A stretch of DNA of 34,669 nucleotides from a virus. The stretch lies in the IMG/VR virus record IMGVR_UViG_3300045988_094729, one strand, 5' to 3'. The notes under the pieces were generated by a model. The model saw nothing but the letters and a program-made list of their open reading frames with translations. It did no database searches and had not been told where the DNA came from. Shown in pieces: positions 5,817 through 19,920 of this stretch (its first letter is position 1; every line of letters begins with the position of its first letter). The translations under genes were made by a program, and so were the position numbers.

Positions 5817-6929
5817 ATGGCAAGGCAAAGCGACGGGAGGTATAGGGCTAAAGTAACCGTCGGCAAGGATATGAACGGCGGCAGCGTGATAAAATATGTA
5901 TCCGGGCGCACAAAGAAGGATTTGGAGGCCGCGAAGGAGGCGGTCAAGCAAGAGTTCATCACCGGGCGCACCGCGCAGAAGGACGCGCTTTTCGGCCCAT
6001 ACGCCATACAATGGTATAACGTCTACAAAAAGCCGAATATAAAGGAATCGGCGCAGAGCGGATATAAGACGGCGCTCAACAAGCACATATTGCCGGTGCT
6101 GGGAGATAAGCGGCTCACCGCAATATCCACTATGGATTTGCAGGAGCTGCTTAACTCCAAGGGCGATACGTGCGTAACCATAATCGAAAATGTACACCAT
6201 GTGTTAGAATCCGTCTTTAAGCGGGCATACTCCGAGGGGATAATCCAGCGGGACGTGACCGTGGGGCTGGTCAAGCCCACGAAAGAAAAGTCAAGCCGCC
6301 GGGCGCTGACGGAAGCGGAGGAAGTGGCGGCAAAGAAGCTGATGCAGGAGGAAAACGGCCTGCTGGTGGCATTGCTGTACTACACCGGCATGAGGCTCGG
6401 TGAAGCCCTCGGCCTGCAATGGGAATGTGTAGATTTCAGGAGGAAGGTCATACACGTCCGGCAGCAGGTCAATTTAAGGAAGGGCATGATAACCCCGCCC
6501 AAGACGAAGGAGAGCATACGGGATATACCCCTGCCGGACGAGTTGGCGGAAATGCTCGTGCGGGGATTCCCGCAGGCGTTTGTGTTCCCCGCCACCGATG
6601 GAACATACTACCGCAATTCCTCTTCAAATAGGCTATGGCGTTCGCTGATGGAGCGCATGGCAGAGTTGGAGCCGGACATTGAAACGAGAGAGGACGGCGC
6701 CTCTATCCTCACGCCGCACTACTTCCGGCACAATTACGCCTCCATACTCTATAATGCCGGCGTTGACGTGCTTTCCGCGCAGAAATTCCTCGGCCATGCC
6801 AACGTAAAAGTAACGCTTGAAATTTATTCACACCTTTCAAAGGAAAAAGAGGACGCAAGCGCGGGCGCGGTTATGGACGCTTTCAAAAAAAGGTTGCCGG
6901 AAAGTTGCCAGAATGAAACCACAAAATGA
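5817..6929 (+). CDS. int: tyrosine recombinase / phage integrase
   Basis: YYTGMRLGEALGL (catalytic Arg box), HYFRHNYAS (HxxR) and LGHANVKVTLEIYSH (catalytic Tyr). N-terminal SAM-like arm. Confidence 0.9.
   Translation: MARQSDGRYRAKVTVGKDMNGGSVIKYVSGRTKKDLEAAKEAVKQEFITGRTAQKDALFGPYAIQWYNVYKKPNIKESAQSGYKTALNKHILPVLGDKRLTAISTMDLQELLNSKGDTCVTIIENVHHVLESVFKRAYSEGIIQRDVTVGLVKPTKEKSSRRALTEAEEVAAKKLMQEENGLLVALLYYTGMRLGEALGLQWECVDFRRKVIHVRQQVNLRKGMITPPKTKESIRDIPLPDELAEMLVRGFPQAFVFPATDGTYYRNSSSNRLWRSLMERMAELEPDIETREDGASILTPHYFRHNYASILYNAGVDVLSAQKFLGHANVKVTLEIYSHLSKEKEDASAGAVMDAFKKRLPESCQNETTK
6892..6913 (+). repeat. two tandem GTTGCCRGAA motifs (within the integrase 3' end)
   Basis: ggttgccggaa agttgccagaa. 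The same motif occurs three times at 7112..7142. Confidence 0.7.
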
Positions 6930-9555: not shown

Positions 9556-9756
9556 CTACTGTTTGTTGTAGTTTGCCGAGGATATGCCCAGCACCGCGCC
9601 CAGGAACGTGTCAACGGCGGTGATGGTGCCGACTATCTCCTCGGGATAGGGAAGGTTCCAGATGCCCGCAAGGGCAAAATAGAGGGTGCCTATGGCGGGG
9701 AGCCAGATCAGGGCGATTGCCTTGAGAATGTCGTATACCTTGTTCGAGAGTTTCAT
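9556..9756 (-). CDS. holin (Dp-1-like family)
   Basis: MKLSNKVYDILKAIALIWLPAIGTLYFALAGIWNLPYPEEIVGTITAVDTFLGAVLGIS. RBS TAAAGGAGGAAAAAAC-ATG. Two TM segments. Confidence 0.75.
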   Translation of the reverse strand: MKLSNKVYDILKAIALIWLPAIGTLYFALAGIWNLPYPEEIVGTITAVDTFLGAVLGISSANYNKQ

Positions 9757-10081: not shown

Positions 10082-10855
10082 TTATTTTTTTAGTGTGCCT
10101 ACATAGATTTTGCCGTCCACGGATACGGTAGCCTGTAACACCTCCGGCAGTTCCGTTTCCCCGGTGTTTGCATAGTCGCCCGCAAATCGCCGTATGGCCG
10201 CAATGGTGTTTTTACCAGCTATGCCGTCCGCGTCCCCCGCGTCATAGCCCAGGGCGTTAAGGGCGGTCTGTAATGCCTTGATATCGTCGCCCCGCATCAT
10301 GGGGCTCGTCAGGGTTATGATCTTCCGCGCCTTTACCTCCTCCCTTTCTTCCTCCTGCTGGAGCAGGGCAAGCCGCCCCCAGTGCGTCCAGTTGCCATCG
10401 GACAGTTTGCGCTTGCATACGCCATCGTCGCGGCCTTTCGCCTCTATGGTGTAGCCGTCGCCGACGTATACGCCGACATGTACCATTTTCTTGCTGCTTT
10501 CGCTGTACTTGAATACGAGGTCGCCCGGCCATATGGGTGTTTTCCCGACGTAGCCCCTGTTTTCGTCGCACATACGGTAAAGCCCCTGGGCGTTGGTGTC
10601 GCCCTTCATCCAGTGCCTTATGTCGCTGATGTAGTGTACGATGAGGCCAGAACAGTCGAATGCGTAGAGAGGCCGTTTTTCGGCCTTCTCCATGAATTTC
10701 ACGGCGCGGTTGTAATTCGTGTCGCTGGTTTCGCGCCGTTCTATCCATGCGTAGGGGTCGCTCATGCTGTCAACCTGCTGCCCCTGCGCACCCCAGACGT
10801 ACATATCCCCGACATGACTTTCGAGGTATTCTATGAAGCCTGTTACTCTGCTCAT
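10082..10855 (-). CDS. endolysin: NlpC/P60 peptidase plus PG_binding_1 domain
   Basis: YAFDCSGLIVHY (catalytic Cys), MVHVGVYVGDGYTIEAKG (His), C-terminal GDDIKALQTALNALGYDAGDADGIAGKNTIAAIRRF. Confidence 0.85.
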   Translation of the reverse strand: MSRVTGFIEYLESHVGDMYVWGAQGQQVDSMSDPYAWIERRETSDTNYNRAVKFMEKAEKRPLYAFDCSGLIVHYISDIRHWMKGDTNAQGLYRMCDENRGYVGKTPIWPGDLVFKYSESSKKMVHVGVYVGDGYTIEAKGRDDGVCKRKLSDGNWTHWGRLALLQQEEEREEVKARKIITLTSPMMRGDDIKALQTALNALGYDAGDADGIAGKNTIAAIRRFAGDYANTGETELPEVLQATVSVDGKIYVGTLKK

Positions 10856-11406: not shown

Positions 11407-11448
11407 TTTGATTTTTTCCTTTCTTTGTTTTTGTTTTTTTTAATTATG

Positions 11449-11469: not shown

Positions 11470-11886
11470 TTATTCCGTGTATTCGCTCCATTTGGAGCTG
11501 CCCGCCTTGGGCTTGTAGACGGTGGACTTGATGTGCTGCTCGGTGCATTGCCATGTTTTGCCGTTGTAGGTCACTATGGTGTCCACCTCGATCACCGTGC
11601 CGTCCTCGATGTCGCTCCACGCGGGATAGGTCACGGTCTGTACCGCCCAATATGTGCCGAGGTTTTCAGCAGGTGGTTTGTTGCGGCTGTATTTGAGGGC
11701 GACATACCCACCCTCCACGGTATCTCCGGCGATATAGCGGGTCTCAGCGTCCCACGGTGCGCCCTGGGTAGGGGTGGGGGTAAGCCCCGCCCGCGCCGCC
11801 GTCAGCACCTCTACAAGGTCGGTCTCGTGTGCCTCGATTTCCGCTTTACGCACGGCTACCAGCGCCATAAGTTCACTGCGCGTCAT
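11470..11886 (-). CDS. carbohydrate-binding (chitin-binding type 3 / CBM5-12-like) protein
   Basis: Two W...Y..GD.V...G..Y/W.C...H-type modules: APWDAETRYIAGDTVEGGYVALKY and VTYNGKTWQCTEQHIKSTVYKPKAGSSKW. Confidence 0.55.
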   Translation of the reverse strand: MTRSELMALVAVRKAEIEAHETDLVEVLTAARAGLTPTPTQGAPWDAETRYIAGDTVEGGYVALKYSRNKPPAENLGTYWAVQTVTYPAWSDIEDGTVIEVDTIVTYNGKTWQCTEQHIKSTVYKPKAGSSKWSEYTE

Positions 11887-12208
11887 TTACATTCACCCCC
11901 AGCTCCGCAAGCGCGTCTATATAGTCCTGCGTGGTGGCCTGCGCCTCATGCTCCGTCCAGCTCTGGACTATCGCTTCGCCGCTGTCCTCCCACATTTCGG
12001 TATAATAAAAGCCCTCCTTTGAGGGCATGGGGGAACGGGTCACGGGCTTATAGCCCAGCTCCTTTATTGCCGCATCGTCATTGGTGGAGAGGTGCGCCCC
12101 TGCGGGGTGCGTCACACCGTTGATTATAAGCGGCGCTTGCAACTCAATCGGCAGACGTAAATATTCGGGATACCCGCCCGCCAGCTTGGCATAGTTTGTG
12201 TTTAGCAT
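11873..12208 (-). CDS. hypothetical tail-fibre-region protein
   Basis: 111-aa ORF in the operon, overlapping the next gene by 14 nt. Confidence 0.55.
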   Translation of the reverse strand: MLNTNYAKLAGGYPEYLRLPIELQAPLIINGVTHPAGAHLSTNDDAAIKELGYKPVTRSPMPSKEGFYYTEMWEDSGEAIVQSWTEHEAQATTQDYIDALAELGVNVNDAQ

Positions 12209-12220
12209 TGTATTGCTCCT

Positions 12221-12601
12221 TTATAGAGTAGTAATATAGTTCGCACCAAAGTCGAAATCGTCATAACTTAAATGATATTCACCACGAATGGTAATATCTG
12301 ACGTTACAGTATAATTGTATGTTCCGTCTTTTATTCCCCCAGCAGAGACCTTAACAGCACCATCTACTGTTACGAGACCACCGCCAGTAGGCCAACCTCT
12401 TTCAGTGGTACTATAATCAACACCTATGACCTCATTTGCGCCTACAATAAAACTTCCTCCGGTATAAACTGCGCCATTATATCTTATTGCATTATTGGCG
12501 CGTATACTGGTAGTATGTTGCCCAGTCAACGTAACTGTAAATGTTTTAGGTTTGCTCTTTGACATCATTCTGCGCCGTAAGGCAAACTGCAATGGTATCA
12601 T
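12221..12601 (-). CDS. fibre-tip paralogue B (N-terminus MIPLQFALRRRMMS)
   Basis: 126-aa low-GC ORF with no Shine-Dalgarno of its own. Its ATG overlaps the stop of the leader ORF 12598..12666 (ATGA). Confidence 0.65.
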   Translation of the reverse strand: MIPLQFALRRRMMSKSKPKTFTVTLTGQHTTSIRANNAIRYNGAVYTGGSFIVGANEVIGVDYSTTERGWPTGGGLVTVDGAVKVSAGGIKDGTYNYTVTSDITIRGEYHLSYDDFDFGANYITTL

Positions 12602-12666
12602 AGCGCGTAGGCGCTTTTTATTTTACGGAGGCTGCCCCCCCCCCCCGATAGAATTATTTTACACAT
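12598..12666 (-). CDS. 22-codon leader ORF containing the G12 tract (MCKIILSGGGGSLRKIKSAYAL)
   Basis: AAAGGAGCATACT-ATG (strong SD). In frame through G12. Terminates in ATGA with paralogue B. Confidence 0.35.
   Translation of the reverse strand: MCKIILSGGGGSLRKIKSAYAL
12635..12646. repeat. homopolymer C12 (G12 on the coding strand)
   Basis: Counted directly. It is the longest homopolymer in the window. Confidence 0.95.
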
Positions 12667-12679
12667 AGTATGCTCCTTT

Positions 12680-13048
12680 TTATTCTTGCCATGCTACATA
12701 GCGGTAAGTGCCGGTAAAGTAAACTTGATCATCCGAGCCGACCTTAACGTTTGCAATCGTGAACCCGCTGTCGTTCACAGTAAACTGAACGGATGATGCG
12801 TTCATATACCATGTATCCATGTCAAAACATAATACGTTGCCATCGTATGTACTCAAAACATGAAATTGTAATGCTGATTCCGCCCTCTCTGACGCTATAA
12901 ACACCGCAACATGGTCGGGTCTAAAGCCTGTTTGAGCAGATATTGATATTGTTGTCAAATGGGAATTTCCCGCATCTATCGTTCCCGTTGCTATATTTTT
13001 CGCCTTTGCCATGTTGCTCATCAGCCTCCTTCGTAGCATAGGTATCAT
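12680..13048 (-). CDS. fibre-tip paralogue A (N-terminus MIPMLRRRLMS)
   Basis: ATG at 13048 overlaps the TGA (13047..13045) of the fibre -1 extension. SD GGAGG lies 10 nt upstream. Low GC. Confidence 0.65.
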   Translation of the reverse strand: MIPMLRRRLMSNMAKAKNIATGTIDAGNSHLTTISISAQTGFRPDHVAVFIASERAESALQFHVLSTYDGNVLCFDMDTWYMNASSVQFTVNDSGFTIANVKVGSDDQVYFTGTYRYVAWQE

Positions 13049-15173
13049 GCGCTCACAACCTCCTGTACTGCCCACACGCCATTGTATACATCAAATTCAT
13101 AGGTCTTGTTTGCCTCTATTGCCGGGGCCGCGCCAATGAATGTGCCACTAAATGACACCGATACACTACTACCCGTAGTAAATGTGCCATGCGCCCAGCC
13201 GGATGCGGGAGGGGTGAATACATATGTACCAACAGGAGAAGATGCATTATATATAGTATTTGCCGTCAGTGCCGCGCCACTGGCGGGGAGGGAGGTTTCC
13301 TGTGTGGGTGGCGCGACATAATCAGTGCCGGGAATAGCAGCTTCAAAGAATGAGCCGTCACTTTTTTTATCATCGGATAATCAGTACGTTCGGACAAATC
13401 TACGGTCATTTGGACATACTGATTAAGCACGGCGAGAAGCGCAAGCGGCGATACATAATCACCTACGCTTGTGTCGGCATCCATGTCTTCAGCTGCCGCC
13501 ACTTTGCCGCCTGCACCCTTGAGCATGCCGTTAATGTTGGTCGCGGTGTCGGCAGTTATCTCGTTAGGGCCAGCGGGGCCCTGTTCGCCCTGTATGCCGG
13601 GGTCACCTTTCGCTCCCGTATCGCCCTGCGGGCCTTTGATGCTGGTACTTGCGGGGTTATCCAGTCCACCGTTATTGCTCCATGAGATTATGCCCTCGGC
13701 AGAGACGGCGGGGGTAAAATACGGCCCGGTGTCGCCCTTGGGGCCGGTGTCGCCTTTCACTCCCTGCTCTCCCTTTGCGCCCTGCTCACCAGTCGCGCCC
13801 TGTTCTCCCTTGGGGACGCCGAACTTAAAGGCAAATACCTTCGCGGTATCTGCGCCGGAAGCTGTCACCTCTACAGTAGCGGGGGTTCCCGCGTCAAGGG
13901 TGGTCGCCGTGGCGGTAGGTGTGCCGAATCCGGCGGCTTCGCCCGTGGGGCCTTGTTCTCCCTGCGGGCCTTTTATGTTGGCTTCGGGGGGATTAGCGAG
14001 GCCGCCGTTGTTTGTCCATGAGATAACTCCCTCGGCGGATACCGAGGGGGTAAAGTAGGGGCCGGTGTCGCCTTTAGCTCCGGCTGCGCCGGGGTCGCCC
14101 TTGGGGCCCGTATCGCCTTTAGGGCCAGTGGGGCCTTGCTCACCTTTTGCGCCCTGCAAGGGGCCGTTGTTTACCCACTTGGAATTTACGCCGTCCCAGA
14201 TATATATATCATACGGTTCGCCCGCGCCCACGCCGTAAGCGTCGCCAGCGGAGGGGTTAGATACTCCGGCTTGTAATGCCGAGAGAGAAGTGTAATAGCC
14301 CAACACGGCAAATCCTTCACCCGTATCGCCCTTGGCTCCCTGTGCGCCCTGTGGCCCCCTTATATTGACTGTGGCGGGGTTTTCCAGCCCGCCGTCATTA
14401 CTCCACGATAAATCGCCGTCAGCGGTCACAGAGGGCGTATAGTGCGCTCCTGCGGGGCCTCGTTCGCCCGTGGCTCCCGTGCCCCCTTTGGGGCCCGTTT
14501 CTCCCTTGTCTCCGGGGTCGCCTTTAGGCCCTTGGATACCCTGTTCACCTTTGGGGCCAGTGGGGCCCGTTTCTCCTGCGGCTCCCGTGTCGCCTTTATC
14601 GCCTTTCTTGCCTTCGGGGCCTTGGGGGCCGACGGGGCCGGGAGTGCCGTCCTGCCACGCCGAGCCGCTTGCGGTTCGAGTGAGTACCTGCCCCGGCGTT
14701 CCGCCCGCCGGCAATCCCCCGCCGCCGGATCCGCCGCCGCTCTGCGCCGCCTCGTTTATGGCCGCTACAAGGGTATTCTTGTCCGCGGTGGTCAACTCGT
14801 CCATGTCGCCGATTTTTGCAAGGAGTTGTTCGTACTGCGTCAGGGATATATCCGGCAGTTCGCCATCCGCAGCGCCGAATGGCAGTACGTCAAACCATAC
14901 CGGGCCCGCCGTCACGCGGCTGTCGGCCTTTATGCCGGATAGTTTCAGTTCCCAGCGTCCTGCAGTGAGGTTTATTCCCTGCGCTGCAGTGATTTCGCCA
15001 CTTGTGAGCTCCGCGGTTATGGTCTTATCTCCGCATACAAAATAGGCCGTGATAACGCGGCCGTTCCAGTCGGCGTCAAACGCAAATTTTGCAGTCAGAT
15101 AGTTTATGCTGTCCGCCACCACAAGTGGTGTACGCAGCATAAGCCTCTGCCCGCGTATAATGCCTGTAAGCAT
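13045..15173 (-). CDS. collagen-like tail fibre. The zero frame stops at 13266 (635 aa); the -1 frame after A AAA AAA (13368..13362) extends it to 13045 (709 aa).
   Basis: Long G-X-Y runs (GPQGPEGKKGDKGDTGAAGETGPTGPKGEQG...). A module Y(F)TPSVSAEGxISWxNNGGLxNP occurs three times. A startless 105-codon -1 ORF reads SDGSFFEAAIPGTDYVAPP...YEFDVYNGVWAVQEVVSA. Confidence 0.8.
13362..13368 (-). other. A AAA AAA heptamer in X XXY YYZ phase (candidate -1 shift site or A-tract indel)
   Basis: The zero frame reads ATG ATA AAA AAA GTG. The -1 frame opens only 4 codons upstream (TGA TTA TCC GAT GAT AAA AAA AGT). Confidence 0.6.
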
Positions 15174-18210: not shown

Positions 18211-19920
18211 TTATCCTCCGTATCCCATCCGCACGCTGCGTCGGTAGTTGTTCGCCATGTCTACCAGTTTTTGTATATCGCTTATCTGTGACATATCAAC
18301 TCTGATATTAAAAGTGTCGCCGCCCACGCCGCGGCTCTCCTGGTTGGTGAGCACCTGGCTTCCCTTTGGGAGGTTGACCAGCTCCGGGCCGTTTTCGCCC
18401 ACCCAAGTCAGGCCGCCGCGCCAGTTGTCGGTGCCGGCGGCGTTATGCGCCACGCCGCCCATCCAACGCCCGAAGCTGCTGTCTGTGCCGTTAAAGACGT
18501 TGGCTATGCTCTGTATATTCGAGGTGTCAAATCTCTTCTGCCCGAAGGAGAAAAGATAATCCAGCGTGTCTGTAAGCGCTCCCACAGCGTTTACGACCAC
18601 CTTCACCGCGTCCGCGAACAGGGCCAGTACGCCGCCAATCGCCTGGAATACCGGCTTTAGCAGGTTGAGTATATCCAGCACCGGCTCTAACGCCTGTAAC
18701 AGGTTGCCCGCCAGTTCGATGATTGTGCCGAAAAGGTCAACCAGCCCCGTATCCGCCGCAAACTCCGCAAATTGCATCGCAAGGTCGCCCACGATCTGTA
18801 TTACCTGTTCGAGGGCCGGTGCAAAAGCAGCCGCAACTTTGCTTTTCGCGGCTTCCATTTTTGCCTCGAACATTCCGAGCGAATCGCTGAGAGAGGCCAG
18901 CTTTTGTATGTCCTCGTCCTTCACGATGGGCGCTGCCGAGGCTACCTGTTCTATTGCCCTGCCGTATTTTTCAAGCATGGGGATAACGGCTTCTTCGCCG
19001 GTCGTTCCCAGCAGTTTTGAGGCTATTGCATTTCTATCGGTTACGTCGGACATCTGTGCCAGAGCGCTGTATACCTCTGTAAAAAGCTGTGCCTGTGATT
19101 TCATCGTGCCGTCGGTGTTTGTCACCGATACGCCGAGGCGGTCGAACATTTCCGCCGCTTCGCCGGAGCCGCTGGCGGCGTCCTGTGCTTTCTCTGCAAG
19201 GGCGGAAAGGTCTCCCTTAGCCTGATCCATCGAGTAACCCACGGACTGCATTACATAATCGAGCCGCTGATATGATTCGGTGGACATGCCAAGCTGAGAT
19301 GAACCGCTCTCGATTTCTTTGGCCCATTCTGCCTGCTGCACCGTCAAGTCGATAAGCGCTTTTTCTACCACCACTATCGCGGCGGCTACCGCCGCAAACG
19401 TGCCTATCAGCGCCATGGATTGACCGTCTATCTTCACCATCCCGTCGAGGGTTCCCTTGATGTTGTCCGGCAGGCTTATTCCAAATTTGCTGCCCAGTTC
19501 GTCGAGCGCATCGCCCAGCCCCTTGCTGTTGTCCCCCGCATTATCAGCCCCATCGCCGTACTCTTTCAAGGCTTCCGTGTTGTTTTTCAGCTCTTTTTCG
19601 GCTTTTATGAGCGCCGTTTCGGTGTCGTTCACGGCCTTTTTCATGCGCATCGTGCGTTCGTCGGCCTCGCCATAGGCCGCGCCCACCTTCTTTAGCCACT
19701 CTTCCTGCAATTCCAGTTTGTCTTTCAGGTTCAACACGCTTTCGTCGAGGTTTTTGTTTTTTGCGTTCAACGCCTCGGCGGAATCGGCATTATCCTCAAA
19801 CTGCGCCGCCAGCTTTTTTGATTCCGATTGCAGCACTTTCATGCCGTTATCTATGCTTTTCAGCGCTTCTTTATATTCCTTTTCCCCTTCGGCTATAAAT
19901 TTCGTTCTTATGCTCGGCAT
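18211..19920 (-). CDS. tail tape measure protein
   Basis: 569 aa with a coiled-coil N-terminus and Ala/Gly-rich hydrophobic centre. It follows the G/GT chaperone pair. Confidence 0.85.
   Translation of the reverse strand: MPSIRTKFIAEGEKEYKEALKSIDNGMKVLQSESKKLAAQFEDNADSAEALNAKNKNLDESVLNLKDKLELQEEWLKKVGAAYGEADERTMRMKKAVNDTETALIKAEKELKNNTEALKEYGDGADNAGDNSKGLGDALDELGSKFGISLPDNIKGTLDGMVKIDGQSMALIGTFAAVAAAIVVVEKALIDLTVQQAEWAKEIESGSSQLGMSTESYQRLDYVMQSVGYSMDQAKGDLSALAEKAQDAASGSGEAAEMFDRLGVSVTNTDGTMKSQAQLFTEVYSALAQMSDVTDRNAIASKLLGTTGEEAVIPMLEKYGRAIEQVASAAPIVKDEDIQKLASLSDSLGMFEAKMEAAKSKVAAAFAPALEQVIQIVGDLAMQFAEFAADTGLVDLFGTIIELAGNLLQALEPVLDILNLLKPVFQAIGGVLALFADAVKVVVNAVGALTDTLDYLFSFGQKRFDTSNIQSIANVFNGTDSSFGRWMGGVAHNAAGTDNWRGGLTWVGENGPELVNLPKGSQVLTNQESRGVGGDTFNIRVDMSQISDIQKLVDMANNYRRSVRMGYGG

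Follow-up and report, generated by a model that had tools for sequence, protein, structure and literature searches.

A length-variable G tract in a 22-codon leader ORF as a candidate translational switch for a tail-fibre accessory gene in uncultured gut phages

Between two small genes that follow the tail fibre of an uncultured phage lies a short leader ORF, which carries a run of 12 guanines and ends on the start codon of the second gene. On balance, the sequence evidence favours reading this G tract as a slipped-strand contingency locus that acts via translational coupling. The tract would thus sit in a dedicated leader ORF, not in a gene or promoter, and the leader would relay translation to an optional second fibre accessory cassette. 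Coordinates refer to the window, by which we mean the whole 34,669-nt stretch analysed (IMG/VR record IMGVR_UViG_3300045988_094729); features are on the minus strand unless stated otherwise.

The leader, or relay, ORF (12598..12666) has 22 codons and a stop, ATG TGT AAA ATA ATT CTA TCG GGG GGG GGG GGC AGC CTC CGT AAA ATA AAA AGC GCC TAC GCG CTA TGA, and reads MCKIILSGGGGSLRKIKSAYAL. Its Shine-Dalgarno (SD) sequence, AAAGGAG (12673..12679), is placed 6 nt 5′ of the ATG and directly follows the TAA (12680-12682) of the first small gene, cassette 1. Most relatives have GGAG at the spacing found in the window; the ...INWKM class has a weaker site, AAAGGAA at 12-13 nt. No homopolymer of the window exceeds 8 except the G12 tract (12635..12646; C12 on the plus strand). 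G9 occurs four times in the window, as overlapping matches that all lie inside the tract, compared to a mean of 0.39 in shuffles. Downstream of the tract, CCGTAAAATAA (12618..12628) is the source of the TAA stops met in the two phases that do not couple.

In the 3n phase, the leader stops at a TGA (12598-12600) that shares two bases with the start ATG (12599-12601) of the second small gene, cassette 2, as CTATGA. No GGAGG-like site is present within 20 nt 5′ of this ATG. A hairpin, AGCGC-CTAC-GCGCT (12602..12615; −7.3 kcal/mol), is predicted there instead, and its last base adjoins the start codon. The locus therefore shows both the stop-start overlap expected for translational coupling and a downstream start that lacks a ribosome-binding site and/or is occluded by structure. 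A preliminary description of this DNA had proposed each of these elements: a G12 tract in a 22-codon leader with a strong SD and ATG, termination of the G12 leader on the start codon of ORF 12221..12601 through a stop-start overlap, and a downstream gene with this hairpin in place of an SD. All of them hold in the sequence. For other tract lengths, the same description gave the correct stop codons and incorrect distances. The G11 leader ends ...GTA AAA TAA, 16 nt before the cassette 2 ATG, and the G13 leader ends ...CCG TAA, 21 nt before it, where 20-26 nt had been stated. Fusion by frameshift was considered and rejected, as the tract is flanked by stops in the cassette frame and the leader joins neither neighbour at any length.

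The mechanism we envisage is as follows. Ribosomes that have completed cassette 1 (TAA at 12680), or fresh ones, would load at AAAGGAG and begin the leader. Tracts of 3n length (G9, G12) would carry them through the small hairpin to the UGA that overlaps the SD-less AUG, where they would terminate and reinitiate on cassette 2. Any other length would bring them to a halt earlier, 16-21 nt upstream of the AUG, on either of two UAA codons that precede the hairpin or lie at its edge, and cassette 2 would be poorly translated. Slippage during replication would often alter the phase, and with frequent changes of phase a phage population would come to mix particles with and without the cassette 2 protein. 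Three parts of this model are inferred: translation of the leader, an influence of its phase on cassette output, and a cassette protein that is located at the tip of the fibre and has a bearing on host range. The hairpin is weak, with the folding energy of the region no better than that of shuffles. Since the hairpin would probably be melted even by a ribosome that ends its run 16 nt upstream, the 'off' state may be leaky, and output of cassette 2 may be graded over the three phases instead of on/off.

To describe variation in the tract, copies of the element were pooled from an exact-flank IMG/VR scan, an anchor-gene scan and a metagenome scan, yielding 92 non-redundant contigs. The element is near-invariant across these contigs, and the tract ranges from G7 to G12: 9 copies have G7, 35 have G8, 33 have G9, 10 have G10, one has G11 and two have G12. 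The remaining two tracts are interrupted; the other 90 of 92 are not. A fixed tract length in deep data, together with leader-independent expression, had been named in the preliminary description as a finding that would speak against a switch, and in these contigs the length is not fixed. Five lengths (G7, G8, G9, G10 and G11) occur on one identical 60-nt upstream flank, and an identical 126-aa cassette 2 protein is found with G8, G9, G10 and G12. Four Logan contigs encode this 126-aa protein, three of them with G10, G9 and G8 and the fourth breaking within the tract, which may hint at switching inside a population. For the gene adjoining the tract, dS is just 0.02-0.1. Both a long uninterrupted simple repeat (G12 here, G7-G13 over all families) and differences in repeat length among near-identical genomes are characteristic of contingency loci. 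These comparisons of assembled contigs show the tract to be hypermutable.

The leader is strictly associated with the presence of a second cassette. Leader and tract are present in all two-cassette loci (∼32 IMG/VR, 48 metagenome and several Logan contigs), and the leader/ATGA arrangement, whose absence from every relative had also been raised as a possible objection, is kept in all relatives with a second cassette. Where a MIPLQFALRRR gene directly follows the fibre, 28 of 28 loci are without leader or tract. At these loci, the cassette ATG overlaps the fibre TGA, and AGGAGG is found within the fibre codons Q-E-V, 10 nt upstream. Leader-bearing loci all have a preceding cassette and single-cassette loci have no leader. 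The leader thus appears to take over from the 3′ end of the fibre gene the part of a translated frame lying upstream, without providing an SD for the cassette. As far as gene arrangement can tell, these data show conservation of the design and its strict tie to extra cassettes.

Changes within the leader are those of a reading frame. Its ATG is present in 91 of 92 copies, the exception (L125) having AGG, and the sole indel outside the tract is the loss of one whole codon, seen in 29 copies. A divergent leader, MYKKITS, is unchanged in length. In L101, two substitutions after the tract spare both out-of-phase stops as well as the in-phase frame. Judging from this pattern of substitution, the leader behaves as an ORF. 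The hairpin loop occurs in five forms (CTAC, CTAT, CTGT, CCCT and CTGC) on a stem that is invariant save for two substitutions (L078, L107), each of which results in a G.U pair. These stem changes are weak evidence for the hairpin, since C-to-T changes always give such pairs.

Across about 170 related loci, the order of genes is constant: fibre, at least one small cassette, a 107-111-aa gene (MLNTNYAKL...), a CBM5/12 protein and lysis genes. In the window, cassette 1 (12680..13048; 122 aa, MIPMLRRRLMS...YRYVAWQE) is ATGA-coupled to the fibre C-terminal domain. It starts at the ATG at 13048, not at the GTG given in the ORF list, and at least three different cassette types occupy its position in relatives. 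Cassette 2 (12221..12601; 126 aa, MIPLQFALRRRMMSKSKPKTF...) is without its own SD, and more than 10 unrelated types of 114-297 aa are found at this second position. The array ends with the conserved 111-aa gene MLNTNYAKLAGGYPEYLRLP... (11873..12208), which has its own AAAGGAG and which served as the anchor that retrieved 79 related loci.

All that the cassette proteins have in common is an N-terminal motif, MI(A/P)MLRRRLM or MIPLQFALRRRMM. Beyond this motif they comprise more than 10 unrelated types of 109-297 aa, some with DUF6273 or Gly_rich_2 domains, and one cassette type can sit at either the first or the second position. Cassettes 1 and 2 of the window had been described as fibre-tip paralogues. 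This is borne out for a motif of 11-13 N-terminal residues and not for the rest of the proteins; an alignment of the two (E = 0.002) covers no more than ∼37 residues at the N-terminus. L020 and L069 differ from other loci by four synonymous substitutions within MIPLQFALRRR, which argues that the motif is translated and that the downstream start is real. In P0007, a 356-aa protein from a distant relative, an N-terminal region of ∼235 residues is fused in frame to ...IPQNYALRRRMM and a tip domain homologous to cassette 2, suggesting that the motif acts as a linker or docking peptide.

Cassette 2 shows dN/dS values of 0.1-0.4 across genomes and in all three tract phases, and by this measure it is functional and under purifying selection. 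Its AF2 model (pLDDT 67) is an all-beta sandwich. Cassette 2 has no match in Pfam or PHROGs, Foldseek searches with the model returned no PDB match below E = 0.06, and two further homology searches gave no named relative; nothing among Pfam, PHROG and PDB entries ties it, by sequence or by fold, to a receptor-binding protein already known. It is nevertheless reasonable to regard cassette 2 as a putative fibre-tip host-range gene, given its position after the fibre, its hypervariability, the all-beta fold and the example of P0007.

The fibre itself is broken in the window. Its collagen-repeat portion is read as a 635-aa frame (13266..15173; PHROG tail-fibre, 1.9e-40, and Pfam Collagen), and the frame break occurs at an A7 run (A AAA AAA G; 13362..13368). 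In relatives the fibre is a single ORF of 782-800 aa with the C-terminal end ...NGVWAVQEVVSA, and three relatives with identical flanks (L059, L062, L128) have A8 and an intact fibre. Fibre length varies from 96 to 800 aa across the about 170 loci, and fibres of many lengths share this one terminal domain. Three-frame translation locates the C-terminal domain of the window, ...KTYEFDVYNGVWAVQEVVSA, in the −1 frame (13045..13361). Its TGA overlaps the cassette 1 ATG, with AGGAGG 10 nt before that ATG. Production of this domain and of the coupled cassette 1 in the window needs a −1 slip or the insertion of one A (+1). Possible readings of the A7 run are that it is another contingency tract, that it serves programmed −1 frameshifting, or that the window represents a defective variant.

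The leader/ATGA design extends beyond the relatives of the window, recurring with unrelated sequence in other phages. The general scan used the pattern SD-ATG-G8. Stop-start overlap, hairpins and fibre context formed no part of this pattern, so the recurrence of these features is informative. The unrelated versions have in common an SD, an ATG, a few codons, a G7-13 tract, early stops, a hairpin abutting the start, and a stop-start overlap in one phase. In type B (L101, G10; L168, G8), the leader lies between the fibre stop and a cassette beginning MNQQMALRRRMM. Its parts are ordered TAAGGAGG, ATG, 5 codons, tract, CAGCACCTCCTAAATAAAAATAA (which contains two stops) and a hairpin TGCC-TGCS-GGCA (S = G or C), with an ATGA overlap in the 3n phase. 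A looser scan gave L163 and L165, both with G8. From the general scan came the L196 family (7 contigs, G8-G10), L192 and L273 (G9 and G13) and L175 (G11), and the L178 family (G9-G12) has two leaders per contig. The overlap is ATGA in type B, L196, L178 and L175, TAAATG in L163, and TAATTATG in L192. In 6 of 7 families a hairpin lies against the start codon or overlaps it, each time with unrelated sequence. At the loci examined (L163, L178 and L254), small paralogous genes are arrayed after the tail fibre, and baseplate genes are also found at L163 and L178.

Several of the leader peptides are similar (MHNFSMLKSGG, MQNFSVLKPGG, MTNFHNLVRGG, MKNFIGGG), and, as peptides, the MxNFxxLKxGGG leaders (L196, L187, L163, L178 and type B) and MCKIILSGGG of the window look related. 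More tentatively, then, G-tract relay leaders may form a widespread, partly homologous class in phages, in which a constitutive first cassette would be followed by further ones, each under the control of a hypermutable leader of its own, so that a single genome would stochastically yield a combinatorial set of virions differing in their receptor-binding tips. This broader proposal is one we hold with less than even confidence.

Tract lengths show no preference for the coupling phase. In the main family, 35 of 90 tracts are in the 3n phase, which is no enrichment, and the lengths form a single smooth hump with its top at G8-G9 and show no 3-nt periodicity. In the other families, 2 of 20 tracts are in the coupling phase. 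Cassette 2 is intact in all phases (31/31 in-phase and 50/52 out-of-phase loci). The phase switch put forward in the preliminary description thus retains two of its supports, hypermutability and a conserved architecture, and is not helped by the distribution of phases. Absence of phase preference together with intact cassettes fits a rapidly reversible, non-essential switch and, equally, a tract whose length is irrelevant. Both defective second cassettes lie behind out-of-phase tracts (L127, G8; L122, G7), a difference that is not significant (2/52 versus 0/31); the defect is a TAA in frame at codon 29 in one case and shortening by a rearrangement in the other.

The main rival of the coupling switch holds that the tract is a mere passenger in a recombination joint. 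According to this explanation, a block of ∼120 nt, made up of the leader and the first 13 cassette codons, stays uniform because it serves as the homology box for cassette swaps, and the G run is simply unstable DNA in that block, with no effect on expression. The block indeed links at least five upstream sequence classes to more than 10 unrelated downstream cassettes, and both the lack of phase preference and the integrity of the cassette in all phases would be expected. Left unexplained are the joint recurrence of SD, ATG, codon-sized indels, early stops, hairpin and G run in unrelated families, the uninterrupted tract in 90 of 92 copies, and the fact that single-cassette junctions recombine without the block. 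We consider this explanation unlikely, although the near-invariance of the ∼120-nt element could be owed largely to a role as recombination joint between shuffled cassettes.

Somewhat less probable still is that the tract works at the RNA or DNA level and not via the leader frame, through 5′-UTR structure, promoter spacing or an antisense terminator. In the 5′-UTR variant, the G run would pair with a downstream CCUCC, or free or mask the leader SD. Three leader families share a core, G(n)CAG..CCTCC..TAAA, which is read in different frames and holds a CCUCC (CACCUCCU in type B) that mimics the 16S anti-SD. The core hints, from its sequence, at a nucleic-acid-level role outside the coupling model. 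In the form CAG(C)(N)CCTCC(G)TAAA, it is located at 12626-12634 of the window, 245-262 of L101 and 10344-10356 of L163. The G run pairs with CCUCC in the predicted fold, and a precedent exists in hmw1A, where a transcribed 5′-UTR repeat acts through RNA structure (PMC12721329). However, any run of at least five G's pairs alike, so length changes between 7 and 12 should matter little. Folding energies are unexceptional, that of the whole intergenic region being no better than in shuffles, which led us to reject an exceptional RNA structure. A known RNA family was rejected as well, Rfam having returned only two sub-threshold chance matches.

The other two variants fare similarly. On the gene strand no promoter-like site spans the tract, which argues against promoter-spacer phase variation; a TAAAAT occurs 9 nt downstream of the tract, without a −35 match at 16-18 nt. 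On the plus strand, a palindromic hairpin followed by TTTTATTTTA (12602-12625) resembles an intrinsic terminator and scores as terminator-like, both in the window type (A) and in type B. The T run on this strand is missing in the L196 and L192 families, and an antisense terminator was rejected.

An improbable explanation is that of a constant mixture, in which slippage of RNA polymerase or of ribosomes along the G run would yield a fixed in-phase fraction from every genome, with DNA length nearly irrelevant. Transcriptional slippage is possible on long homopolymers, and a constant mixture would suit the absent phase preference. Slippage is, however, documented best for A/T runs, and the DNA length polymorphism is left unexplained, although the two are compatible. 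Sequencing or assembly artefact, with G12 and the length differences being homopolymer miscalls, is very improbable: G12 does lie at the tail of the distribution, the other G12 contig has just 2.8x coverage, the fibre of the window has an A7/A8 frameshift and one Logan contig breaks within the tract, but length differences persist in contigs at 10-213x, across several assemblers and collections, and 2.9 kb of conserved coding DNA in the window shows zero indels against relatives, on which ground a homopolymer-error-prone assembly was rejected.

Slipped-strand phase variation is classical in bacteria such as Neisseria, Haemophilus and Campylobacter. The coupling switch proposed here would share with those contingency loci the mutational mechanism and the signature of different lengths on identical backgrounds. 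The position of the repeat differs: in bacterial loci it is the regulated ORF, a promoter spacer (−35/−10) or a transcribed 5′-UTR, whereas in the window it is an upstream relay ORF. Coupling by stop-start overlap (ATGA/TAATG), with ribosomes opening an inhibitory hairpin, is likewise textbook knowledge, known from MS2 coat-replicase and many phage late operons. Classical coupling resembles the present case in the stop-start overlap, the SD-less downstream start and the hairpin over the initiation region. It is fixed, however, whereas the upstream ORF in the window is without evident product function and carries a frame-scrambling tract. The invertible G/C segments of Mu and P1 and diversity-generating retroelements also provide alternative distal tail-fibre parts from one genome. 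Inversion or retroelement switching was rejected for the window, since its scanned ORFs include no invertase or reverse transcriptase, inverted repeats are lacking, and the cassettes are all on the same strand.

Among phages, the closest parallels are found within coding sequences. PolyG tracts inside receptor-binding protein genes of Campylobacter Fletchervirus phages are described as hypermutable (Sorensen et al. 2021, Cell Rep 35:109214; PMC12823448, PMC10877375). As portrayed in these reports, they too are phage G homopolymers, variable by slippage, attached to a host-recognition module and proposed to generate phenotypic mixtures. The Fletchervirus tract, in these accounts, is in the coding frame and truncates or restores the regulated protein. 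The tract in the window lies outside that frame, in a separate 22-codon leader that leaves the protein frame untouched, and, unlike Fletchervirus polyG as reported, would affect translation initiation. In T2/T4 and other coliphages, in-ORF repeats have been presented as contingency loci (bioRxiv 10.1101/2025.10.21.683753). These are, according to the abstract, simple-sequence repeats with reversible frameshifts, read as bet-hedging (bioRxiv 10.1101/2025.10.21.683753). They differ in being in-ORF, in many gene classes and in cultured phages, and the abstract describes no leader-ORF or coupling arrangement. A full-text literature search returned no hypermutable tract in a dedicated relay ORF gating a stop-start-coupled gene.

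If leader phase does set cassette translation, this would be phase variation without damage to the regulated gene, achieved via a disposable upstream frame whose phase is read out by ribosome coupling. It would also provide a simple, testable explanation for hedging between alternative fibre accessories in uncultured temperate gut phages. Under the combinatorial reading, if true, such leaders would add a third general means of host-range bet-hedging to those offered by invertible segments and by diversity-generating retroelements. As the design lends itself to pattern searches, it could be used to flag host-range modules in metagenomic phages. Real population heterogeneity at such tracts would be collapsed by assemblies. 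Engineered or therapeutic phages with such leaders would, if the coupling switch operates, not breed true for their adsorption apparatus.

The genome is that of a temperate, siphovirus-like phage or prophage. Its plus strand encodes a tyrosine integrase (5817-6929) as well as a repressor, and the structural and lysis genes (terminase, portal, capsid, tail proteins) are on the minus strand, including those for the tape measure (18211-19920) and an NlpC/P60 lysin (10082-10855). DNA comparison with cultured phages gave no match and hence no close cultured relative; for TerL, the best identity to Paenibacillus phages is ≤57%. GTDB species genomes, scanned twice for a host, gave no match. All relatives found come from human-gut metagenomes.

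Other homopolymers were seen in the course of these comparisons. Many other IMG/VR phage families (L176, L181, L183, L271, L226, L209, L197 and relatives) have a G8-G11 tract within the first few codons of a genuine ORF, such as MFNKLIRGGG... (179 aa), MAKTSGGIRGGG... (104 aa) and MINNPVVSSTGGG... (118 aa). In these families the length varies between contigs, and several have cassette-like MINNP N-termini; from their sequences, the in-ORF tracts look like classical contingency loci. In the window, positions 11434-11441, between a 184-aa gene and the CBM5/12 gene, are T8 versus T7 or T6 in relatives, and near 9556 the window has G5 versus G6 in relatives. Finally, an inverted pair of the form C6-7...G7 (cgCCCCCCaattaaGGGGGGGc) is intergenic in many relatives (L037, L056, L057, L086-L088, L095 and L098), where it adjoins AGGAGG ∼1.6 kb from the locus end and resembles a strong hairpin or terminator.
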